Shown: positions 12,455 to 64,000 of the stretch, in pieces | How the letters are laid out: each line of letters starts with the position of its first letter | Numbering within the stretch: position 1 is the first letter of the stretch | Notes under the pieces: generated by a model | Told to the model about the DNA's origin: nothing | The model's database searches: none | What the model saw: only the letters and a program-made list of their open reading frames with translations | Program-made: the position numbers and the translations under genes | IMG/VR virus record: IMGVR_UViG_3300027869_000006 | Span: 1-64,000 of that record | Origin: a virus | Direction: 5' to 3' (one strand) | Length of the DNA: 64,000 bases

Positions 12455-13183
12455 ATGGTCAGAGATATGCAGCAAGGAGTGAGAGAAGATAGTCTCTCTG
12501 CTCTACTTCCTCTTGAGGTCATTGCACTTGACCAACTTAAGCCTCATCCACGCAACTATCGAAGTCATCCCGAAGATGAGATTCTTCATCTCATGGAAAG
12601 TATTCGTGCCAACGGGATTTACAAGAATATCGTGATTGCCAATGAAGGGACGATCCTGTGTGGTCGGGGAGTGACTATAGCAGCAGAGCGACTTGAATAT
12701 ACCCATGTCCCTGTCTATCGTGCTCCCTATGGGCCGAATGATCCACGCGCCATCAAACTCCTCGTCAGTGACAATGAGATTAGCCACTTAGCTGAAAATG
12801 ACGATAGAGCACTCACTGAACTTCTCAAAGAACTGAAAGACTCTGAACTTGACCTGCTTGGGACTGGCTACGATGAAATGATGCTTGCCAATCTTGTCAT
12901 GGTGAGTCGGCCCGCCTCAGAGATTGCTGATTTAGATGCTGCGGCGCAGTGGGTAGGAATGCCGGAGTATAACGATGAAGGGGATGAAGAAAGCGCCGAG
13001 TTCTCCGTGATTGTGAATTTCGCTACTGAGGAACATTGTCGGGAGTTTTGTCGTCGTCTTACTATAGATGCCAGTAGTATCCTGATGCGGAAAATACGCA
13101 GACCGATCTGGTGGCCGTCGCAAGTACGTGATGATCTGCTCTCTCTACGATTTACTGCGGAGAAACAGGGAGAAGAGAAATGA
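12455..13183 (+). CDS. ParB/Srx-like N-terminal domain protein
   Basis: LKPHPRNYR..H, SIRANG..NIVI..GTILCGRG, SDNEI. Confidence 0.8.
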   Translation: MVRDMQQGVREDSLSALLPLEVIALDQLKPHPRNYRSHPEDEILHLMESIRANGIYKNIVIANEGTILCGRGVTIAAERLEYTHVPVYRAPYGPNDPRAIKLLVSDNEISHLAENDDRALTELLKELKDSELDLLGTGYDEMMLANLVMVSRPASEIADLDAAAQWVGMPEYNDEGDEESAEFSVIVNFATEEHCREFCRRLTIDASSILMRKIRRPIWWPSQVRDDLLSLRFTAEKQGEEK

Positions 13184-14094
13184 TGAACCCCGTTCTCCCG
13201 CGCTATCCCGTCTATATTCCTAGTAAGGGTCGGGCTGAACAAGGGTTAACCGCGCGTTATCTCGTTGCTAGTGGCGTGCCATTTCATCTCGTCGTCGAAC
13301 CACCGGAAGCGGATGCCTATGCAGCACAGTTTGGGGCTGACCGTCTGCTCGTACTTCCATTTCATGATCTTGGCTTAGGGAGTATTCCAGCACGTAATTT
13401 CATTTGGGAACACGCGAAAGCGAGTGGAGCAGAGCGGCACTGGACACTCGATGATAATATGCGCTGCTTTTATCGGCGCTTTAAAGCGAGGCGTCTCTAT
13501 TGCGATGCAGGGATCGCGCTCCGCGTCTGCGAAGATTTTACCGACCGCTATGAGAATATCGCTATCGCGGGCTTAAACTACGCGATGTTCGTGCCAGATA
13601 AAGAGCGTATCCTTCCCCTCCAAATCAACTGCCATGTCTACTCCTGTATGCTGATCCTGAATAGCCTGCCGTATCGCTGGCGTGGCCGCTATAACGAAGA
13701 CACCGATTTCTGCCTGCAGGTACTAGCGAATGGGTGGTGTACTATCCTTCTCAATACCTTCGTCGTGGAGAAAATTGCGACAATGACGATGAAGGGTGGG
13801 AATATGACCACGCTCTATCAAGGCGATGGACGCCTCAAGATGGCTCGCTCTTTAGAGCGAGCCTGGCCAGGTATAGTTGAAACGAAGCGGCGCTTCCAGC
13901 GACCACAACATGTTATTAAAGATGGCTGGAAGAAGTTCGATACCAAACTGAAGTTAAAACCCGGTATTGATTTATCACGATTAGAGTCTAATGAATATGG
14001 CATGTCACTCGTGCAGGTTGCGGATTCGATCAAAAGCCCGCGTCTCCAGGGTCTGCTCGATGAGTGGCGAGAGACGCACGAGGAGCCGCTATGA
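13180..14094 (+). CDS. GREB1/TET-associated-like (TAGT) GT-A glycosyltransferase
   Basis: YPVYIPSKGRA, HWTLDDN, WRGRYNEDTD, MKGGN. Confidence 0.75.
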   Translation: MMNPVLPRYPVYIPSKGRAEQGLTARYLVASGVPFHLVVEPPEADAYAAQFGADRLLVLPFHDLGLGSIPARNFIWEHAKASGAERHWTLDDNMRCFYRRFKARRLYCDAGIALRVCEDFTDRYENIAIAGLNYAMFVPDKERILPLQINCHVYSCMLILNSLPYRWRGRYNEDTDFCLQVLANGWCTILLNTFVVEKIATMTMKGGNMTTLYQGDGRLKMARSLERAWPGIVETKRRFQRPQHVIKDGWKKFDTKLKLKPGIDLSRLESNEYGMSLVQVADSIKSPRLQGLLDEWRETHEEPL

Positions 14095-14435
14095 GACGAA
14101 ATACTAGTCACACCCGTGGCACACCTCGCCAGAGTGGTGGCTACCTCTTAGAGGACTCCTGGGTGGATTATTCCGATGGCCAGTCCGTCACCTACTCCAC
14201 CCATGCACCAGACCCGATCCCACTCGGTATCGTCAAGCTGGAACGGGATGCCTCGCTCTCTCCCGATGGGCCGTATGCATTGTACGTGGTGGTCCACGTC
14301 AAGAAGCGCAATGACTGGGGAGCCATCCAGCAGTTCGATATCTGGAAACCGTTATCGCAGAAAAGTCCCTATCGATTGGAGGATGCACGGGCGTACCTGG
14401 AGCAGGCCGTACGAGGCGGGAGGATGAGTTCATGA
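14091..14435 (+). CDS. hypothetical protein
   Basis: AGGAG RBS; ATGA overlap. Confidence 0.55.
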   Translation: MRRNTSHTRGTPRQSGGYLLEDSWVDYSDGQSVTYSTHAPDPIPLGIVKLERDASLSPDGPYALYVVVHVKKRNDWGAIQQFDIWKPLSQKSPYRLEDARAYLEQAVRGGRMSS

Positions 14436-14456
14436 AGAAGGGGAGAGAGAGATTCT

Positions 14457-15032
14457 ATGCCTGAAGACTACAACACAACATCGCTCCCACGCGTATTGAG
14501 GAAACGGCGGCGTGGCCAACGATTGACTGCCGAGGAGAAGCATCTCGCTCAACAAAAGTTCCTCGACTCCTTCAAGCTCAATGCGAATATCACCGTTGCG
14601 TGCATGCAAGCAGGCATTGATCGTTCGCAGATTTACCGCTGGCAGGAAAAAGATCAACAGTTCAGCTTCCGGTTCAATCAAGCGGAAGCTGAAGCCAATG
14701 ATATGCTACTTGCGGCTGCCTGGCGACGTGGCGTGCAGGGGGTGGAGAAAGCCGTCGTCTCGATGGGCAGACAGGTCTTTGTCGAGGAGGAACTGCCCAA
14801 TGGGACAAAGATACGCAAGCCACTCATGGAGCGAGAATATAGCGATGCCGTCCTCCTGAGACTCATGTCCTACCGTATTCCAGGTTTCCGTGAGAAGCAG
14901 CAGGTGGAAATGAGTGGGAGTCTTGAAGTTTTCCAGGGGGCGCGTGATGCGCTTCTTACTGAGTTAGCGACACTTCCAGATGTTGGTCAAACACACACAG
15001 AAGCTAGCAGTACCGAAGCCAATCCCCTTTGA
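14457..15032 (+). CDS. terminase small subunit
   Basis: HTH (NITVAC..AGIDRSQIYRW), REYSD; directly upstream of TerL. Confidence 0.8.
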   Translation: MPEDYNTTSLPRVLRKRRRGQRLTAEEKHLAQQKFLDSFKLNANITVACMQAGIDRSQIYRWQEKDQQFSFRFNQAEAEANDMLLAAAWRRGVQGVEKAVVSMGRQVFVEEELPNGTKIRKPLMEREYSDAVLLRLMSYRIPGFREKQQVEMSGSLEVFQGARDALLTELATLPDVGQTHTEASSTEANPL

Positions 15033-30421: not shown

Positions 30422-33400
30422 ATGGCAGGGAGCGACTTTTCTCTTGGTACGGCCTCAATTGGACTTGGGGTGAATACTGATGGATTAACCTCCGGGTTTG
30501 CGCGTGCCAAGGAGATGGTTGGGAGTTTTGGCGGTGCCGTCGGCGGACTACTGATTGGTGCGACCGTCGCAGCCGTTGGGCTAGGCGCTGCGACGGTCAA
30601 GATGGCAGGTGATTTTTCCGCATCTATGACCCAACTCGTGACGGGTGCTGGCGAATCACAATCCAACCTCAAACTCGTCTCCGATGGTATCCTCCAAATG
30701 GCCGGGACGACCGGCACCTCGACCAAAGACCTCGCAGCAGGTATGTATCTCATCGAGAGTAGCGGCCAGCATGGTGCACAAGCCCTGACAACGCTCCAAG
30801 CCGCCGCCGAGGGCGCAAAGGTAGGTGCAGCCTCGCTCGCCGAGGTTGCCAATGGCGTGACCACCATCATGACCGATTACGCCAGTGCGAATGTGACCGC
30901 CGCCAATGCCACCAATGCCCTCATCGAGGGTGTCGCGCTCGGCAAAGTCCACCTGGGTGACCTCTCTACTTCGATGGCAACCGTACTTCCTACGGCCTCC
31001 GCGCTTGGGATCGGACTCAATGATGTGATCGGGGCCATGTCCACCATGACCGCCGAAGGGGTTCCTGCCGCCAATGCCGCCACCTACTTGCGGCAAACCA
31101 TGATGTCCCTCGAAGCCCCGGCCAGTGCGGGGGCCAAAGCCATTGCTGCCATTGGACTGACGACCGCACAAGTTAGCGACGAGATGAAGGTCTCTCTCCC
31201 CGGTACCTTGCAGATGATTATGGATCACCTGGCCGCGACGTATACGGTCGGGTCCCCGCAATATATTGAAGCCCTCAAAAATATCGCCGGGGGGTCGAAG
31301 CAGATGCAAGGGATGCTCGACCTGACGGGGACGCACCTGGCCATTTTCAAGGATGATGTGCAAGCCGTTGCCGATCAAGTGAAGGCAGGCGGCGATCAGA
31401 TTGCTGGCTGGACGCTGGTCCAGGGCGACTTCAATCAGAAGATGGATGAGGCAAGAGGGGTCATCGAAGCCCTTGGCATCAAGATCGGGTCGGTACTTTT
31501 GCCGGTGGTCTCGCAACTGATGGGGTGGTTGACCCCGATGGTTTCCACGATTGGAGATCATCTGGTCGGGGATGTGACCAACCTGGCCGATGCCTTCCAG
31601 TCCGTCTTTGATCCGATGAGCCAGGTGCAGAGCGTGGCTAAACCCCTGGCCGATACCTTCGATCATGACGCAGCAATGGTGGACAACTTGACTGGAGCCA
31701 TGAACCCCTTCCAGCAAGCCATGTTCAATCTCAAGCCGGACCTCGCGGATATCGGCGGGATGTTCAAGACGGTCGGCGATGTCGTCTTCAACCAGGTCAT
31801 TCCAGCCGTGGTGGGGTTGGCCCAAAAAGTTGAGCCCATCATCACCGATTTCTTCAACTGGGATGAGAAAACCCACTTCATCAGTACCACCCTACACGAT
31901 CTGGGCGGGTTCGTGAGCGCCGTGGCCGGTGATATCGGCAATGACCTCGTCCCACCCATCAGGGCACTGCTCGGACATCTCGAGAACTGGCTTTCTTCTT
32001 CCAACATGATCCATGATGCCCTTGGATTCCTGGCAGGGGCGATTGGGGTTGTCTCCAGTGTACTGGGAACATTGATCGGCTGGGTTGGCGACTTCGTGGG
32101 GGGGCTGGAAAAGGGCAATCCCCTGGCGGTGGCACTTGGCATTGCGCTGGTGACGGTTGGCACGGCTATTGCGGGTATCAAGCTGACGGAGTTTGTGCTT
32201 GGGCTCCAGAACGCCTTTACGCAGGCTGGCGGACTCAGCGGTATCCTGGAGAAATTTATCAGTGATACCTTCCCCAATCTCGCTCGCTCCCTCGGCCTGG
32301 TCAAGACGGCTGAAGTTGAGGTCGGAACCACCGCCGAAACGACGATGGCCGAGGGAGTGGCCACGGGGGCGACGGCGGCAGAGGCTTCCCTCGCGGGTAT
32401 CGGTACTACTGCCGAAACCACGATGGCTGAAGGGGTCGCTACGGGGGCGGTAGAGTCAGTAACTTCGCTCGCGGAAGTCGGGACACAGGCAGAGATCACC
32501 GCCGATACCGTCAAGACCTCCTCACTGAGTATGGCCGCATCCATTGGCTTGATTGGGGGCGCGATTGGACTCGTCCTGGTTGCTATCCCGCTCATCCAAC
32601 AAGGGCTCGCTGCCACCAAACAGAATATGGATGATACCGCCAAAGGCTTGAGTACGCAGATTGATGCCGCTGCCTCCAAGATTCATGACTCCTTTATCCC
32701 GGAAATAGCGAACGTCAATACCATGTCGGTGGCCCAGATCAGTGACATGAAAGCGAAGATCGTCAGTGAATTGGAACAAATCACCGGCAAGAGTCAGAGT
32801 GATGCCGAAAAAATGGCGAATGACTGGATTTATGGGACACAACAAATGCAGACCCAGGTGTCTGCCAATCTTGCCACCATGTCACAGCAGGCCATCCAAT
32901 CCGCGCAGCAACTCGTCAGTGGCGTCGAGCAGGCCCTCGCACAAATGCAGACCAATTCCGCCTCTGATATGGAGAGCATGAAGGAAGGCATCACCTCAGA
33001 ACTGATCTCAACCTACCATCTCTCCTATAGCACCGCGACCCAGATGTCAAGCCAGTGGAGCGCTGAACTGCAAAAGATGCAGAATGCCTCCCCGCAGCAG
33101 ATGGCCAGTATGCGCCAGCAGATGATTGATGAGCTTCAGAAAACGCTTGGGCTTTCCACCCAGGACGCCACGAACATGGCCGATCAGTGGATTGCCCAGG
33201 TCATGCGTGAGAAAGATCAGACCACCTATAACGTCATGCAACTGCATGACCAGGTTGCCCAACAACTCCAAGATACCGAGCACCTTTCAGCCTCAGCGGC
33301 GTCATCGATGGCCGATCAGGTCATTGGATCAGTCCAACATATGAAGGATATGGGCATCTCCGATACCGTCGCCATGAAGATTGCCATCGCGGAGGTCATG

Positions 33401-56089: not shown

Positions 56090-57330
56090 GTCAAATACCC
56101 CATGAATAAATTCAGGGGCTTGCAGCTAGGCGCGTCCTGCTACAGTAGGCACTTTGACGGGTGCCCGAGAGATATTGATGGCAGCATTGATGTCAGCGTT
56201 CATCGACATGCCGCACTTGACACAACAGAAGGAGACTTGACTCTTGCGGTTCTCTTTCGCACAGTGCCCACAAGCAGAGCACGTTCGAGACGTATTGCGG
56301 GGGTCTACCGTGTGTAACGACACACCAGCAAGAGCAGCCTTATACGAGAGGAATTGACGAAGTTAAGCAAAGGCCCAGGATGTAAAGCGATTGCGCTGAG
56401 AACGTCTAACCGTGCTATCGGTGCGTTTCCGAATGTGCCTGAGTTCTTCAATCGCTATTCCTTGTTTGTTGGCCTTTGCTTTCGCAATGATCCGTTTGGA
56501 GATCACATGATTGGTATTGCGCTTGAACCTGGCTTCTTTGCCAGAGAGCTTCTTGAGATGCCGTTTGGCGGATTTCGTGCCGCGCTTTTGCAAACGTTGA
56601 CGCAAGGCGTGCATACGTGTACGCACCTTCTCAACCTGCTCACCGCTAAAGGTGTCCCCGTCACTGTCGGTCGCCAGGTTGACGATGCCAAGATCGATGC
56701 CAAGCGTCTCAGTCACTTCATCGGGCGTAGGTTCTGGAACATCAAGCGTGACAGCCAGGTAGAAGGTACCATCACGCCAAATCAAATCGGCCTGTCCTTT
56801 GATCTTGTCCATACGGGCTTGCTGATAGCCACCAATGCGGAAGGGCACAAGTACCCGTCCAGTGGTTGTCAAGAGGGAAACGGTAGTGAGTCCTTTGAAG
56901 GACATCACGCGGGGATCATAGACAATGGCACCTCTGGCATCAAACGTTGGCATGATACTCTTGTCGCGCTTGTAGGCTTCGGTCGCTTTGCTAATACAGC
57001 GGATGGCGAGTTGAGCAGGCAGATTGTACCACTTGCGCAAATAGCCATAGACCAGCTTTTGCAGTGCAAACTTATTGGCACTCTTCTCCAGAAAGGCGAT
57101 TTGCGCCACATAGTTTGCCCCTGCATTGAAGCAATCCATCGTCAACAACAAGGCTTTGTATTGTTCTTCAGTTGGGGCAAGCTTCAAGAGCATCGTTTGT
57201 TTCATAGACATATTGTAGCATCATTGATGAAAGTTGTCAATAGGCGAGATGATACCCAACCCATCTTGCCCATAAGGAAGGGCTTGCTTACCCCATGCTT
57301 AAAAGACAGGGACTTCCGCAAGCCCGATTG
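56090..57330 (-). mobile_element. IS200/IS605-family tnpB-only element (decayed)
   Basis: Left end after TCAC with hairpin GGGCTTGC/GCAAGCCC (57280-57325); right end CAAGCCCC..GGGGTATTTGAC ending at 56090. Confidence 0.8.
56126..57205 (-). pseudogene. tnpB: tnpB pseudogene (nonsense plus frameshift)
   Basis: GIDLG, IEEL; TAA at 56363-56365; 1-nt frameshift near 56340; then VDPRNTSRTC..CG..NADINAAINI. Confidence 0.85.
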
Positions 57331-59311: not shown

Positions 59312-59896
59312 ATGGCAACGACACCGACAAAAACCCCGAAGCAGCAAGCCTCACTCGCAGGCGTCTGGCAGGGCATTGAGGCACCAATCATCGGTATCCT
59401 CCTCTCCCTTGCCGTAGCTATTCAGCAGTATTTTAGTACCCATAGTGCCCCAAATTGGGGAGAACTGGGAATGATCCTGTTCCCGACCGTCATTGTTGGT
59501 ATTGTGCAAGCACTCAAGCAGTTCAATGCAACACTCGGGCAGGCATCAGTTCCCATCGTCACCGTCCCGCCGCCCGCACCGGTTGTCTCACCATCCGACA
59601 TTGCGGCAGCGATACGACAGCAGGTACCAGGACTGGTCATACAACAGCCACCGGCACCACCGTCGTTCATTGCGCCGTCAGTGCCACCAGGAGGATACGA
59701 TACGACGCTGGTCCAACCCCTCTCATTCGCCCCTCTGACCACGCCTGCCCAGCCACAACAACCGTACACGTGGTCACAGCCAGAACCATCCCCGACACTC
59801 ACGACACCTGCGCCAGTAATTACGCCGGTATTGTCACTGCCAAGTACGTTTCCGCAAACACTCGATTTACCAATCGTACGACCACAAATTGAGTAA
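59312..59896 (+). CDS. putative holin-like 2-TM protein with Pro-rich tail
   Basis: GGAGG RBS; two TM segments; near endolysin. Confidence 0.6.
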   Translation: MATTPTKTPKQQASLAGVWQGIEAPIIGILLSLAVAIQQYFSTHSAPNWGELGMILFPTVIVGIVQALKQFNATLGQASVPIVTVPPPAPVVSPSDIAAAIRQQVPGLVIQQPPAPPSFIAPSVPPGGYDTTLVQPLSFAPLTTPAQPQQPYTWSQPEPSPTLTTPAPVITPVLSLPSTFPQTLDLPIVRPQIE

Positions 59897-59897
59897 T

Positions 59898-59935
59898 AAT
59901 AAAGGGTACTACATCTGCATGTAGTACCCTTTATT
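59898..59935. terminator. bidirectional intrinsic terminator
   Basis: Perfect 17-bp IR AATAAAGGGTACTACAT-ctgc-ATGTAGTACCCTTTATT between convergent units. Confidence 0.85.
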
Positions 59936-59941
59936 CATCCC

Positions 59942-60129
59942 ATACCATACCGCATCCCGCCGGACTGCACCCCACCCAGCCTTGCCAGACATTACCCCGC
60001 ATCGCCACGCCTTACCCCACCGAACTACACCTTACCAACCAGACCATGCCGAACCCGACCGGACCACGCTATACCGTACCTTACCTTACTGAACCCAGCC
60101 AAGCCGGACCTCACCATACCTACCGTGCC
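59942..60129 (-). repeat. GGY-NN pentamer array C (38 units), putative guide RNA
   Basis: Minus strand GGCAC GGTA GGTAT GGTGA GGTCC GGCTT...; 5-nt period with two 4-nt slips. Confidence 0.9.
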
Positions 60130-60130
60130 A

Positions 60131-60349
60131 TTAAGCGTATCGTGTTTGGTCTGTCTCCCAGTTCACTAAACGTACAGGTGTCACATCTAAGTCTGTGATA
60201 GGAATGCCATACTTTTCTTCAGCTAAACTCAGTCCTTCCTGAGCATCACTAGCGGTTATCTCACCCACTATAGGCACCTGCTGCTTTCTTAGCTTGGCAT
60301 GCACGGTAGTGTCATGTCCCTTATACCAAACATCGAACCTATGCAACAT
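60131..60349 (-). CDS. 72-aa accessory protein coupled to the Cas7-like gene
   Basis: TAATG overlap at 60347-60351. Confidence 0.65.
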   Translation of the reverse strand: MLHRFDVWYKGHDTTVHAKLRKQQVPIVGEITASDAQEGLSLAEEKYGIPITDLDVTPVRLVNWETDQTRYA

Positions 60350-60897
60350 TACTTCACCTTTTCCCATGACACAAGAGCAAATCTCCCATACGGCCCTTTC
60401 TTTGCAGGACGGAAGTCACCAATGCCAACAAGTCGCCCTGCATCGGTGAGTATGTCACGGATAAGACGTTCACCAACTAGATCGGTATCAATCTGAACAT
60501 CAAACTCCATATTCCACTCATCGAACATTGGCCTGTGGCGTAGAATACGCCCCCCAGTCGCTTTAATGACAACAGCCCGTGAGTCCACATGCCATTCCCC
60601 TACCAGAGGAATTTCAAATGGGCTAACATAGACCCCTGCCGCTACATCAGTTGTCGCAGCCCTCCGTCCAATTTTGTGTCGTGATGCTGCTGCAATCATT
60701 GACTGCCGAATATTCTCAGCCGGATAGAATGGGCTATGTTCATTGGTATACAGGCGACTTGCCGCATCTTCATGAGGAGCCGGATATTCTTTCCGACCAT
60801 GTGTTCCTGAAGTTGCTTCCTCTGCCGCTGCCTCATGAAAACGATTCACGATGAGCGGCGTCAAACTCGTAATGTTGACCTTGTACGTTACAATCAT
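60349..60897 (-). CDS. minimal Cas7/RAMP-like protein (182 aa)
   Basis: YKVNITSLTPLIVN, YPAENIRQSM, RHRPMF..W, C-terminal G-loop GRLVGIGDFRPAKKGPYGRF; AAAGGA RBS before ATG 60897. Confidence 0.75.
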   Translation of the reverse strand: MIVTYKVNITSLTPLIVNRFHEAAAEEATSGTHGRKEYPAPHEDAASRLYTNEHSPFYPAENIRQSMIAAASRHKIGRRAATTDVAAGVYVSPFEIPLVGEWHVDSRAVVIKATGGRILRHRPMFDEWNMEFDVQIDTDLVGERLIRDILTDAGRLVGIGDFRPAKKGPYGRFALVSWEKVK

Positions 60898-60928: not shown

Positions 60929-60960
60929 GTGGTGCCCTGCCCCAGTGGTAGGGCTACCAC
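60929..60960 (-). other. hairpin 3' of array B
   Basis: GTGGTAGCCCTACC-actgg-GGCAGGGCACCAC. Confidence 0.55.
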
Positions 60961-60977
60961 GCGAAACAAAATGAACA

Positions 60978-61161
60978 AAACCATACCAGACCGGACCTCG
61001 CCAAACCCGGCCTTGCCAGACCGGGCCTTGCCAGACCGGGCCAAACCCGACTACACTAGACCTCATCATGCCACACCTCCCATACCATACCCATCCTTAC
61101 CGAACTGCGCCAGACCGCAACGTACCAGACCGCGGCAAGCCGGGCCGGACCCAACCTAACC
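60978..61161 (-). repeat. GGY-NN pentamer array B (37 units), putative guide RNA
   Basis: Plus strand NN-RCC units AAACC ATACC AGACC GGACC TCGCC...; one 4-nt slip at 61078-61081. Confidence 0.9.
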
Positions 61162-61172
61162 TATTCCTCAGC

Positions 61173-61370
61173 AAACCATGCTATACCCCACCTGACCGTA
61201 GCACTCCTTCCAAACCGCACCATACCCAACCAAGCAGGACCCCGCGTCACCGCACCTGATCGGGCCATACCCCACCTGACCAAGCCGTGCCTACCTTGCC
61301 GCACCAAACCTCACCTCACTCAGTCTTGCCTCGCTGGACCTAGTCGCACCGAACCTGACCTTGCCGTGCC
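61173..61370 (-). repeat. GGY-NN pentamer array A (40 units), putative guide RNA
   Basis: Begins ATGGCACGG like array C; two 4-nt slips; 11-nt linker to array B. Confidence 0.9.
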
Positions 61371-62005
61371 ATAATCCTGCTATAGGCCAATTTCACGCAG
61401 AACTCAACGTCATTCCATACCTGGGAGCCAGTGAAGCGAAGAACGTACCAGCCTTGATCTTCAATCGTATGCTGTCGCATATAGTCTCTATTTCGGTCTC
61501 TCTTGTGACTATGGAACGCTTGCCCATCAAGTTCGATTACTATCTTTGCTTCAACATGGGCAAAGTCTACACGATACTTACTAATCCGATGCTGTCGCTC
61601 AAGAGGGATATCTGGATACAGCAGGCACCATGCTTCATAAAAGGCTTCCTCGATGGGACTTCCATTCTTGACGGATTGCTGAATTTCCCGTAAACGATTA
61701 CGAGCCTCATTAAGTGCAGCCTCACGTTGTTGATTAGCAAGTCGCAAGGCTTCTACTCGCTCTGCTTCTAGTGCTTGACGACGTTCTAGGGCCTGCTCTC
61801 GCTTCTCCCGAATGGTTGCTACTTCAATCTCTCTCTGGACAGATTGCTGATGCTCATTCGCACGACGCTTCAACTCCCTAGCTTCCTGAATCATACTAGC
61901 TTTCTCTGCCGCAAGTTGACGTTGTATGGCAAGTTCATGCTCTCTGTCAGCTTGAAGTTTTCGTTGTTGTTCTTGATAGTCGTTGAATGCTTGCCAGTCC
62001 ATCAT
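61340..62005 (-). CDS. coiled-coil plus DUF559/Vsr-like PD-(D/E)XK endonuclease
   Basis: SPIE..QHRISKYRVDF..IVIELDGQAFH..RD..R..GWYVLRFTGSQV. Confidence 0.85.
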   Translation of the reverse strand: MMDWQAFNDYQEQQRKLQADREHELAIQRQLAAEKASMIQEARELKRRANEHQQSVQREIEVATIREKREQALERRQALEAERVEALRLANQQREAALNEARNRLREIQQSVKNGSPIEEAFYEAWCLLYPDIPLERQHRISKYRVDFAHVEAKIVIELDGQAFHSHKRDRNRDYMRQHTIEDQGWYVLRFTGSQVWNDVEFCVKLAYSRIMARQGQVRCD

Positions 62006-62007
62006 GC

Positions 62008-62181
62008 TTATTGTTCTCGTTTTGTAGGCTTTTGCTGTTTCTGTTGTACTCGTTCTAATTCTTGGTTCGCTAAACGGTCAAGAAGACTCACGATACTCTC
62101 CCCTGTGATGGCATGAAGCATACGCAAGGTGGTAAGTGTCCTTGTCCAGATGCGAGTTGTTTTGTAGTCATCGGTAGCCAT
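62008..62181 (-). CDS. 57-aa ribbon-helix-helix-like regulator, leaderless (not in ORF track)
   Basis: MATDDYKTTRIWTRTLTTLRMLHAITGESIVSLLDRLANQELERV...; ATG at the predicted TSS. Confidence 0.7.
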   Translation of the reverse strand: MATDDYKTTRIWTRTLTTLRMLHAITGESIVSLLDRLANQELERVQQKQQKPTKREQ

Positions 62182-62187
62182 GAAGTT

Positions 62188-62216
62188 ATTTTACTACAAA
62201 CAAGTGTTCTTGTCAA
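62188..62216 (-). promoter_or_regulatory. consensus sigma70 promoter of the Cas7-like cassette
   Basis: TTGACA(62216-62211)-N17-TAAAAT(62193-62188). Confidence 0.8.
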
Positions 62217-62276
62217 GAGGAAAAGAAGACGCCCTTGACACAAGCATATACTAAGAGCAGAAGGGGGAATTTTTCT

Positions 62277-62837
62277 TTGGAACGCGGGTCCGTTATTCTT
62301 TTTGAGAAGGATGGCAGTCTCTTCAATTGGCTCATCACGAAAGCAACTCATGGTCCCTATGTCCATGTGGAAATTTGCCTGGGCGAGGAACGCCTGATCG
62401 GTGCTCACGGTAACCGTCGCGGCATCTATGAGCGTGATTGGGCCGATGCACCTTCGTTAGTGACGGAGGTCTCTCTCTCCCCCTATGCCGATGAAGAGCA
62501 CATCGAGCAGGCCCTTACCTGGGCGCAAGAGCAACAGGGGCATCCCTATGGATGGTGGGATATCGCCAGTCAGTCCATCAAGTTCTTGTGGCCAACGACA
62601 CCGCTCCGGTTCAGCAAGTCAGACGCATGGGGGTGTGCAGACTATGTGACCCGCTATCTGATACAAGCAGGGGTGGCCTTGCCAGAAGACTTCATGGACC
62701 CTGGGAAAAACTCGCCCAACGATATTGGACGGTTGTTCCATCTCGTTCCACAACGGCCACAACGCATCAGAAAACGGGAGAGAGAGTTGAGGAAAGGTCA
62801 TGCCATTGCCGCATTTGCCGCCTCCAGACGAGGATGA
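62277..62837 (+). CDS. permuted papain-like (YiiX/YaeF-type NlpC/P60) amidase/peptidase
   Basis: His before Cys: GPYVHVEI, GHPY, WGCADYV, SPND; TTG start after AGGGGG. Confidence 0.7.
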   Translation: MERGSVILFEKDGSLFNWLITKATHGPYVHVEICLGEERLIGAHGNRRGIYERDWADAPSLVTEVSLSPYADEEHIEQALTWAQEQQGHPYGWWDIASQSIKFLWPTTPLRFSKSDAWGCADYVTRYLIQAGVALPEDFMDPGKNSPNDIGRLFHLVPQRPQRIRKRERELRKGHAIAAFAASRRG

Positions 62838-63795: not shown

Positions 63796-64000
63796 TTAGA
63801 CTCCTTCCTGAGCAGGTGCTACTTCATCATTCAGTAGTTCAATACCTGCTTGTACGTATGCCTCTATCCAAGCAACTTCACGCCATCTAGGATTGACACC
63901 TTCATCGACAACTTCTAACGTTAACATCCAAGGAAGCATATGGGCATCTAAAATGGCTTGTATCCTAGCATGCTTGCGTTGATTATTATCAGAGAGCAAG
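63796..64000 (-). CDS. GIY-YIG-like nuclease, C-terminal part (5'-truncated)
   Basis: LEVV....REVAWI..Y...G.ELLN. Confidence 0.55.
   Translation of the reverse strand, partial: LLSDNNQRKHARIQAILDAHMLPWMLTLEVVDEGVNPRWREVAWIEAYVQAGIELLNDEVAPAQEGV

Follow-up and report, generated by a model that had tools for sequence, protein, structure and literature searches.

Predicted guide units in a soil phage spell the genes flanking their cassette in other codons

A tract of pentamers, each a GGY followed by two variable letters (NN), lies beside a small RAMP-type gene in a soil phage (closest relatives labelled Ktedonobacteraceae), and it raises the question of what the variable letters say. The window analyzed here is a stretch of 64,000 nucleotides, the first part of a virus record of 109.8 kb. 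The original prediction held that the dinucleotides of units 59972-60036, taken as the first two letters of codons with one base skipped after each, decode to the 3' end of the gene on the left, and that the RNA would pair with the coding strand of that gene.

VIPR systems were first described in 2026 as a RAMP protein, Vipr, acting with vrRNAs of alternating GGY and NN (bioRxiv 10.64898/2026.04.26.720920). The dinucleotides pair with double-stranded DNA under a 1-nt skip rule, by which one target base is skipped between dinucleotides (10.64898/2026.04.26.720920, 10.64898/2026.04.26.720927), and cryo-EM places one Vipr protomer on each pentamer (10.64898/2026.04.26.720927). Most natural targets lie in coding sequence, where the skipped base falls at the wobble position; they are called at a cut-off of at least 80% NN match, a level at which no self-targets are reported, and silencing is abolished when NN pairing is disturbed (10.64898/2026.04.26.720920). 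Nuclease-type vap genes occur in some VIPR types, and “staggered arrays” are shown in fig. S18 of the same paper (10.64898/2026.04.26.720920). The systems characterised are the type II VIPR of Escherichia phage SUSP1 and of a Pseudomonas fulva prophage, and escape is said to need amino-acid changes (10.64898/2026.04.26.720920, 10.64898/2026.04.26.720927, 10.64898/2026.10.15.759431). Since VIPR was described in 2026, the pentamer array and its gapped code are not new in themselves.

The locus comprises the following features, listed from left to right.

59312-59896, plus strand: left flanking gene, encoding a 194-aa protein, called holin-like in the original prediction, with a Pro-rich C-terminal half
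59825-59863, plus strand: look-alike of the C4 target in the resident genome, left flanking gene codons PVLSLPSTFPQTL
59898-59935, minus strand: perfect hairpin of 17 bp with a U-rich run after it (fold z -4.4)
59937-60036, minus strand: whole vrRNA C4, with 17 guide units (59952-60036) and three tail-like units (59937-59951)
59972-60036, minus strand: guide portion of vrRNA C4, its 5' 13 units (GGY+NN pentamers), from array parsing
60037-60120, minus strand: vrRNA C3, 17 units
60131-60367, minus strand: 78-aa ORF after vipr, with no family match
60349-60897, minus strand: vipr, encoding a 182-aa single-domain RAMP protein
60973-61340, minus strand: upstream vrRNA array AB, about 75 pentamers
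61340-62005, minus strand: gene for a 221-aa protein with a DUF559 / REase_MTES_1575 match (Vsr-like nuclease fold) at residues 133-208
62008-62181, minus strand: 57-aa ORF, the first gene of the operon
62188-62216, minus strand: TTGACA-17-TAAAAT, a promoter-like site (11 of 12) at the cassette's right edge
62277-62321, plus strand: look-alike of the C3 target in the resident genome, codons 1-15 of the right flanking gene

Array C is a 190-nt tract (59937-60127) of about 38 units, in which NN+RCC on the plus strand corresponds to GGY+NN on the minus strand. Together with array AB it accounts for the only period-5 regions in the 109.8-kb record, and in both arrays GGY lies on the minus strand, the same strand as vipr. 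The register shifts at a 4-nt unit (60037-60040), a staggered-array boundary directly after which the units of C4 begin, and array AB is split in the same manner by 4- or 6-nt units into AB1 to AB5, of 10, 17, 9, 17 and 18 units. The tail-like units of C4 read GGTAT GGTAT GGGAT. The hairpin beyond them, which also stands directly past the stop codon of the convergent plus-strand gene, is the predicted 3' end, or terminator, of C4 and of the minus-strand operon; a small hairpin (60945-60960) follows array AB, next to AB5. Rfam has no family for either array, and a blastn comparison of the cassette against phage records returned no match. The guide boundaries, the processing and the 80% level used here are borrowed from other VIPR clades.

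The string GGTAT GGTAT GGGA ends both C4 (59937-59951) and AB4 (61078-61092), and the vrRNAs of SUSP1 (L081) end in GGTAT GGG or GGTGT GGG ahead of their tail. It may mark where the 3' handle begins, conserved between distant VIPR clades.

The assignment of the locus starts from the 182-aa protein. Its AF2 model (pLDDT 89, pTM 0.82) has Csm3/Cas7 chains as top Foldseek matches (Csm3 and type VII Cas7, E 3e-7 to 1e-5), and BLASTP against SUSP1 Vipr gives E 3e-13 with an alignment that runs across the G-loop; GGYNN tracts of the same kind are present in SUSP1. The protein matches phrog_4652, while Pfam and PADLOC contain nothing for either it or the 78-aa ORF, a counterpart of which was sought in 80 related loci and was absent from all. 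More than 100 homologues of the 182-aa protein were found in metagenomes, all with an invariant G-loop region near the C-terminus (alignment consensus GDFRPARKGPYGRF), and relatives of vipr are encoded on 546 viral contigs. In the best 80 loci, with GC contents from 34 to 71%, period-5 arrays abut the vipr homologue in about 76, and GGY lies on the sense strand of that homologue in the loci that were read. Tandem Repeats Finder detected no CRISPR repeat-spacer array in the whole window, and the 10 ORFs tested in 56-64 kb include no cas family match, vipr being the sole RAMP-like gene there. Judged from sequence and modelled fold, the locus is a phage-borne VIPR system. Rho-utilisation sites, sponges for a TRAP-like protein, G-quadruplexes and centromere-like DNA repeats were set aside as identities of the arrays, since the conserved RAMP partner and the VIPR papers account for them. 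The gene with the DUF559 match adjoins the array upstream and is kept in the two closest relatives (L001 and L002) only; given its conservation directly upstream of the array in both, its product is a candidate vap protein.

Several further observations concern the layout of such loci. In L009, positions 301-2240 hold about 15 tandem modules, each with a -10-like AT-rich box, about 17 GGCNN units, the constant CAAGGCAAGG and a T-run, and on this pattern the modules look like separately transcribed vrRNA genes in series. A four-gene block at 63796-66122 of the present record (63796-64000 of the window and beyond) is shared at 28-83% identity with positions 12591-14686 of a related phage (G001), in which the VIPR cassette is found on the opposite side of the block; this difference suggests that either the cassette or its surroundings moved. 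Elsewhere in the window, a 282-aa ORF with an OrfB_IS605 (TnpB-like) domain (56363-57211, minus strand) lies just left of an amidase gene and is overlapped by a long antisense ORF, and a 78-nt tandem repeat is present in two copies, 76% alike, at 32322-32474.

With the array parsed, the question becomes whether C4 does correspond to the gene on its left. The plus-strand dinucleotides of the 13 units from 59972 are CC CA TT AG TT CC TC AC TT CC GA AC TT, which decode as P-[HQ]-L-S-L-P-S-T-F-P-[DE]-T-L. The codons at 59825-59863 follow the reading frame of ORF 59312-59896, ending 33 nt before its stop. The counts first given for this pair, 7 of 13 dinucleotides identical and 11 of 13 codons compatible, were borne out on recounting; counted as single letters, 17 of 26 nucleotides match.

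At the nucleotide level, shuffling the order of the dinucleotides gave P=0.004 for the single 13-unit window against the single gene. This value became 0.05 (dinucleotides) or 0.18 (nucleotides) when any 13-unit sub-window of array C was allowed, and 0.27-0.42 when any DNA within 1.5 kb was allowed. None of the seven full-length guides beats its shuffles against the phage's own genome (56-72%), and the best nucleotide site of full-length C4 in that genome is elsewhere than the left flanking gene. Skip rules of 0, 2 and 3 were uninformative at this level, the last finding the array itself only.

The codon level gives a different answer. Among approximately 440,000 positions (the 109.8-kb genome in six frames and both orientations), 11 of 13 is the sole value above 7. 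Out of 3000 composition-preserving shuffles scored anywhere in the genome, none reaches 11 and three reach 10. When the choice of sub-window is included, the genome-wide local scores of C4 stand at 1/1500 (compatibility) and 4/1500 (BLOSUM62). The match is obtained in the N4N5 pentamer register only. The same procedure applied to 33 guides of four related phage genomes, each against its own genome, found nothing (maximum z 1.8), which indicates that the codon test is not permissive. Given that 11 of 13 consecutive in-frame codons are compatible, and that this is unique genome-wide, the units map onto a 3-nt target period.

These values confirm that the C4 match is real, but only when it is read as codons: C4 spells, in frame, a variant of the left flanking gene's C-terminal part in which other codons are used. 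The shuffling of dinucleotide order that the original prediction had proposed as a check does not reproduce the match at the codon level; at the nucleotide level, once corrected, the match is within chance. Likewise, the match holds as evidence for a gapped code at the peptide level, whereas the 7 identical dinucleotides are not significant alone. The code itself, with one base skipped at the wobble position and pairing to the coding strand, is supported both by its agreement with the published rule (10.64898/2026.04.26.720920, 10.64898/2026.04.26.720927) and by the codon-level match in the window.

That the resemblance arose by chance in a Pro/Ser/Leu-rich region of low complexity would fit the Pro-rich character of the target, and fits the nucleotide-level match, which is within chance given the choice of sub-window and target. 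This reading was at one point drawn from the nucleotide-level shuffles and was dropped after the codon-level tests. It is now very improbable: the codon-level shuffles speak against it, as do the independent match of guide C3 to the other flank and a clean reversed-sequence control.

The genome-wide best match of the peptide decoded from C3 falls at 62271-62321, where the right flanking gene begins, a result reached by 1/1500 shuffles. Over 17 units, 20 of 34 NN letters match (59%), and the differences comprise three Ser/Leu family switches and the conservative changes T/S, I/V, V/I, Q/K and N/D; the start codon is spelled as ATG and is TTG in the resident gene. C3 thus spells codons 1-15 of the right flanking gene in variant form. 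The best matches of C3 and C4 are both in frame, in the same orientation, and 35-105 nt outside the ends of the cassette. The right-flank ORF is listed as 62235-62837 (plus strand) with a TTG start at 62235; two homologues and guide C3 indicate TTG 62277, which on this comparison is likely the actual start.

The agreement in C4 is confined to part of the guide. The remaining four guide units misfit the resident gene in register, and a fit requires an assumed one-codon indel; with one codon dropped, two of the four (GC and CC) fit exactly. The resident C4 site reaches a 65% NN match over 13 units and 19 of 34 letters over 17 units, and neither resident site ever has more than three matched units in a row. 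Judged by these values against the 80% level of published targets, the resident gene is a look-alike rather than a competent target.

A regulatory reading of the same sites, in which imperfect pairing of the guide with the phage's own flanking genes tunes their expression, for instance the timing of lysis, draws on the fact that the look-alikes are resident and beside the cassette, and that the region is located just downstream of the amidase gene. With NN matches of only 65% and 59% and at most three consecutive units, with published silencing dependent on intact NN pairing and natural self-targets absent at the level of 80% or above (10.64898/2026.04.26.720920), and with Ser family switches being the changes most disruptive to pairing while the protein stays the same, we consider self-regulation a distinctly improbable role.

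The differences at the two sites are informative in themselves. Of the six differing dinucleotides at the C4 site, four are family switches: a pair at Ser (TCN/AGY), running in opposite directions, and a pair at Leu (CTN/TTR). The other two change the residue (V versus H/Q, Q versus D/E). In the two sites together, nine Leu/Ser/Arg codons are conserved, and 7 of them come from the other family, compared with 3.6 expected (P 0.023), a figure obtained both from codon usage and from natural pairs of Vipr genes with 55-70% identity. Between natural homologues in that identity range, the frequency of family switches is 35% for Leu and 46% for Ser. The excess points to self-sparing, yet it is modest, could reflect ordinary divergence, and is suggestive only. 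Given that the resident sites match at only 65% and 59% of NN letters, and that they differ mostly by family switches and conservative changes, the complex would be expected to spare its own genome. The spelled allele of the flanking gene is probably carried by a sibling phage, the resident copy being left unbound.

The spelled allele itself was sought widely. The left flanking protein has no homologue in a collection of 5.8 billion proteins or in IMG/VR; the right flanking protein has only two distant homologues, the N-termini of which misfit guide C3. A search for the 13-unit pattern with up to three mismatches in five related phage records, where the original prediction expected better matches in homologous genes, did not find it, and no cross-targeting at the nucleotide level was detected among five phage genomes. 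Exact 9-unit scans of IMG/VR found only three chance matches for the two halves of C4, none of which extends, none for part of C3, and nothing for AB2, AB4 and AB5, while a scan of JGI metagenomes for C3 returned five copies of one unrelated, non-extending sequence; such exact scans need nine perfect units and therefore miss targets with a few mismatches. The contigs of the source soil metagenome contain this contig only, with no variant allele; that DNA run is the sole one listed as containing the stretch, and no RNA run is listed. Sites with an NN match of at least 80% were absent from the phage's own genome, from four relatives, and from IMG/VR and the JGI metagenomes, the latter two covered by exact windows. 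The collections searched hold no close relative of the locus.

These negative results fit a guide that has outlived its target, the allele having since drifted or been lost, with the codon differences reflecting ordinary divergence; family switches are, moreover, common between natural homologues of 55-70% identity. In such a relic, the GGY frame would not be expected to remain intact in all 17 units, as it does here, nor would two neighbouring guides be expected to point at the two flanks. The occurrence of the same pattern in a tenth of guides elsewhere, presented below, also argues for function and against a relic, and we regard this explanation as improbable.

The peptide test was applied to 207 guides parsed from 103 distinct other VIPR loci (L001-L106), each guide being compared with its own surroundings within 4 kb on either side. 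Twenty-two of the 207 beat all 100 shuffles, compared with 0 in the reversed-sequence control. The look-alikes have NN matches of 52-80%, therefore the published self-target check at 80% would miss most of them. Of the 23 best look-alikes, 14 lie within 500 nt of the array. In four loci (L022, L025, L026 and L077) the look-alikes are in N- and C-terminal motifs of the locus's own vipr, and in three (L079, L093 and L086) they are at the ends or starts of flanking genes.

In the former four loci, guides directly beside vipr (L022 3485-3514, L025 3948-3977, L026 3493-3522 and L077 4514-4600) spell its own N-terminal motif (I.G.TPLI.N) or C-terminal motif (PFGKF.VV.WE) with few mismatches; against their own vipr, the guides of L022, L025 and L026 match at 16 of 20 NN letters. 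By their spelling, these guides look to be aimed at rival vipr alleles. In L079 (3479-3541) and L093 (3162-3224), which are independent of each other, the upstream array opens with a guide that spells the C-terminus of the gene immediately upstream; the two spelled peptides are related (...SERKF and ...DERKF), and the layout is the same as in the window.

Taken as a whole, the reading we favour, and hold to be probable, is that units 59972-60036 belong to the guide of C4, a vrRNA of a phage VIPR system, and that this guide is aimed at a sibling phage's allele of the same locus and spares the phage's own. From the arrangement of the sequence, one minus-strand transcript would run from the promoter at 62216 to the hairpin at 59935-59898, carrying in order the small ORF, the DUF559 nuclease gene, array AB, vipr, the 78-aa ORF and array C, and would be cut at the register shifts into vrRNAs of about 85 nt. 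By homology with SUSP1 and P. fulva, one Vipr protomer would sit on each GGY, and the resulting filament would present each NN to double-stranded DNA as NNx. The complex would presumably be aimed at the other allele of the locus in a sibling phage met in the same host, at which it would either stop transcription from crossing the junction or flag the site for the nuclease encoded alongside it.

The last step has a rival reading, in which the guides serve RNA-guided homing or marker exclusion: they would mark the insertion site of the cassette, on both its sides, in cassette-free siblings, the DUF559 protein would cut there, and repair would copy the cassette together with its recoded, immune flanks. 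Free-standing phage homing endonucleases show homing and marker-exclusion behaviour of this kind. Both targets lie just outside the two ends of the cassette, and the operon includes a Vsr-like nuclease gene that is kept beside vipr in the two closest relatives; nuclease-type vap genes are, in addition, reported in some VIPR types (10.64898/2026.04.26.720920). However, no empty-site allele or presence/absence polymorphism was seen in collections that hold no close relative of the locus, the relatives carrying DUF559 are without flank-directed guides, and the characterised VIPR silences rather than cuts, the DUF559 protein being a nuclease by predicted fold. We therefore consider homing unlikely, though to be taken seriously.

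A more general proposal, which we put forward tentatively, is that VIPR cassettes often target alleles of their own neighbourhood, with the residents protected by changes that keep the protein, and that in this phage the guides and the DUF559 protein may form an RNA-guided element for homing or sibling exclusion. If this is true, family switches of Ser, Leu and Arg would be the only synonymous means of evading a code that skips the wobble base.

The locus matters in that it provides a natural case in which the meaning of a guide can be read within the same genome, a neighbouring gene being spelled in other codons. It thereby supports the 1-nt-skip, wobble-aligned code independently and from genomic data alone, in a clade far from the tested ones. 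Two aspects go unreported in the VIPR papers of 2026. The first is the direction of guides against alleles of the cassette's own flanks, found for both flanks here and for about a tenth of guides across 103 loci; these papers mention guides against other VIPR loci and do not mention guides that mirror their own flanks. The second, to which the results point, is synonymous escape by way of six-fold-degenerate codons, from a code described as making amino-acid changes necessary for escape; escape by codon-family switching is not mentioned in them.

Compared with the VIPR systems of SUSP1 and P. fulva, the locus has the same minimal single-RRM RAMP with a G-loop, GGY/NN tracts on the strand of the gene, carriage by a phage, and, as decoded at the codon level, NNx targets with the wobble base skipped. 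It differs in that those systems have separate RNAs of about 100 nt with pseudoknot tails, whereas here staggered 17-unit guides are joined by 4-nt units. As in published VIPR, where some guides have other VIPR loci as targets, the guides would be aimed at competing mobile elements; unlike in published VIPR, the conserved neighbour is a protein with the DUF559 nuclease fold, the two decodable guides spell alleles of the genes flanking the cassette, and the resident copies would escape mainly through six-fold codon-family switches.

With Class 1 CRISPR-Cas, in which Cas7/Csm3 filaments form on crRNA, the system shares the RAMP fold, its top structural matches being Csm3 and type VII Cas7, as well as one protomer per fixed length of guide and a periodically interrupted pairing of guide and target. 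It differs from Class 1 in having no repeat-spacer array or cas operon evident in 56-64 kb, and in a period of 5 nt (3 sequestered and 2 pairing), the guide being a tandem tract of pentamers. The T4 seg/mob homing endonucleases offer a third comparison: there too, a nuclease gene belongs to a cassette with a conserved gene on either side, recognition falls within these neighbours in related genomes, and the resident versions depart from the recognised sequence. Unlike in T4, recognition here would be performed by guide RNAs instead of by the nuclease.
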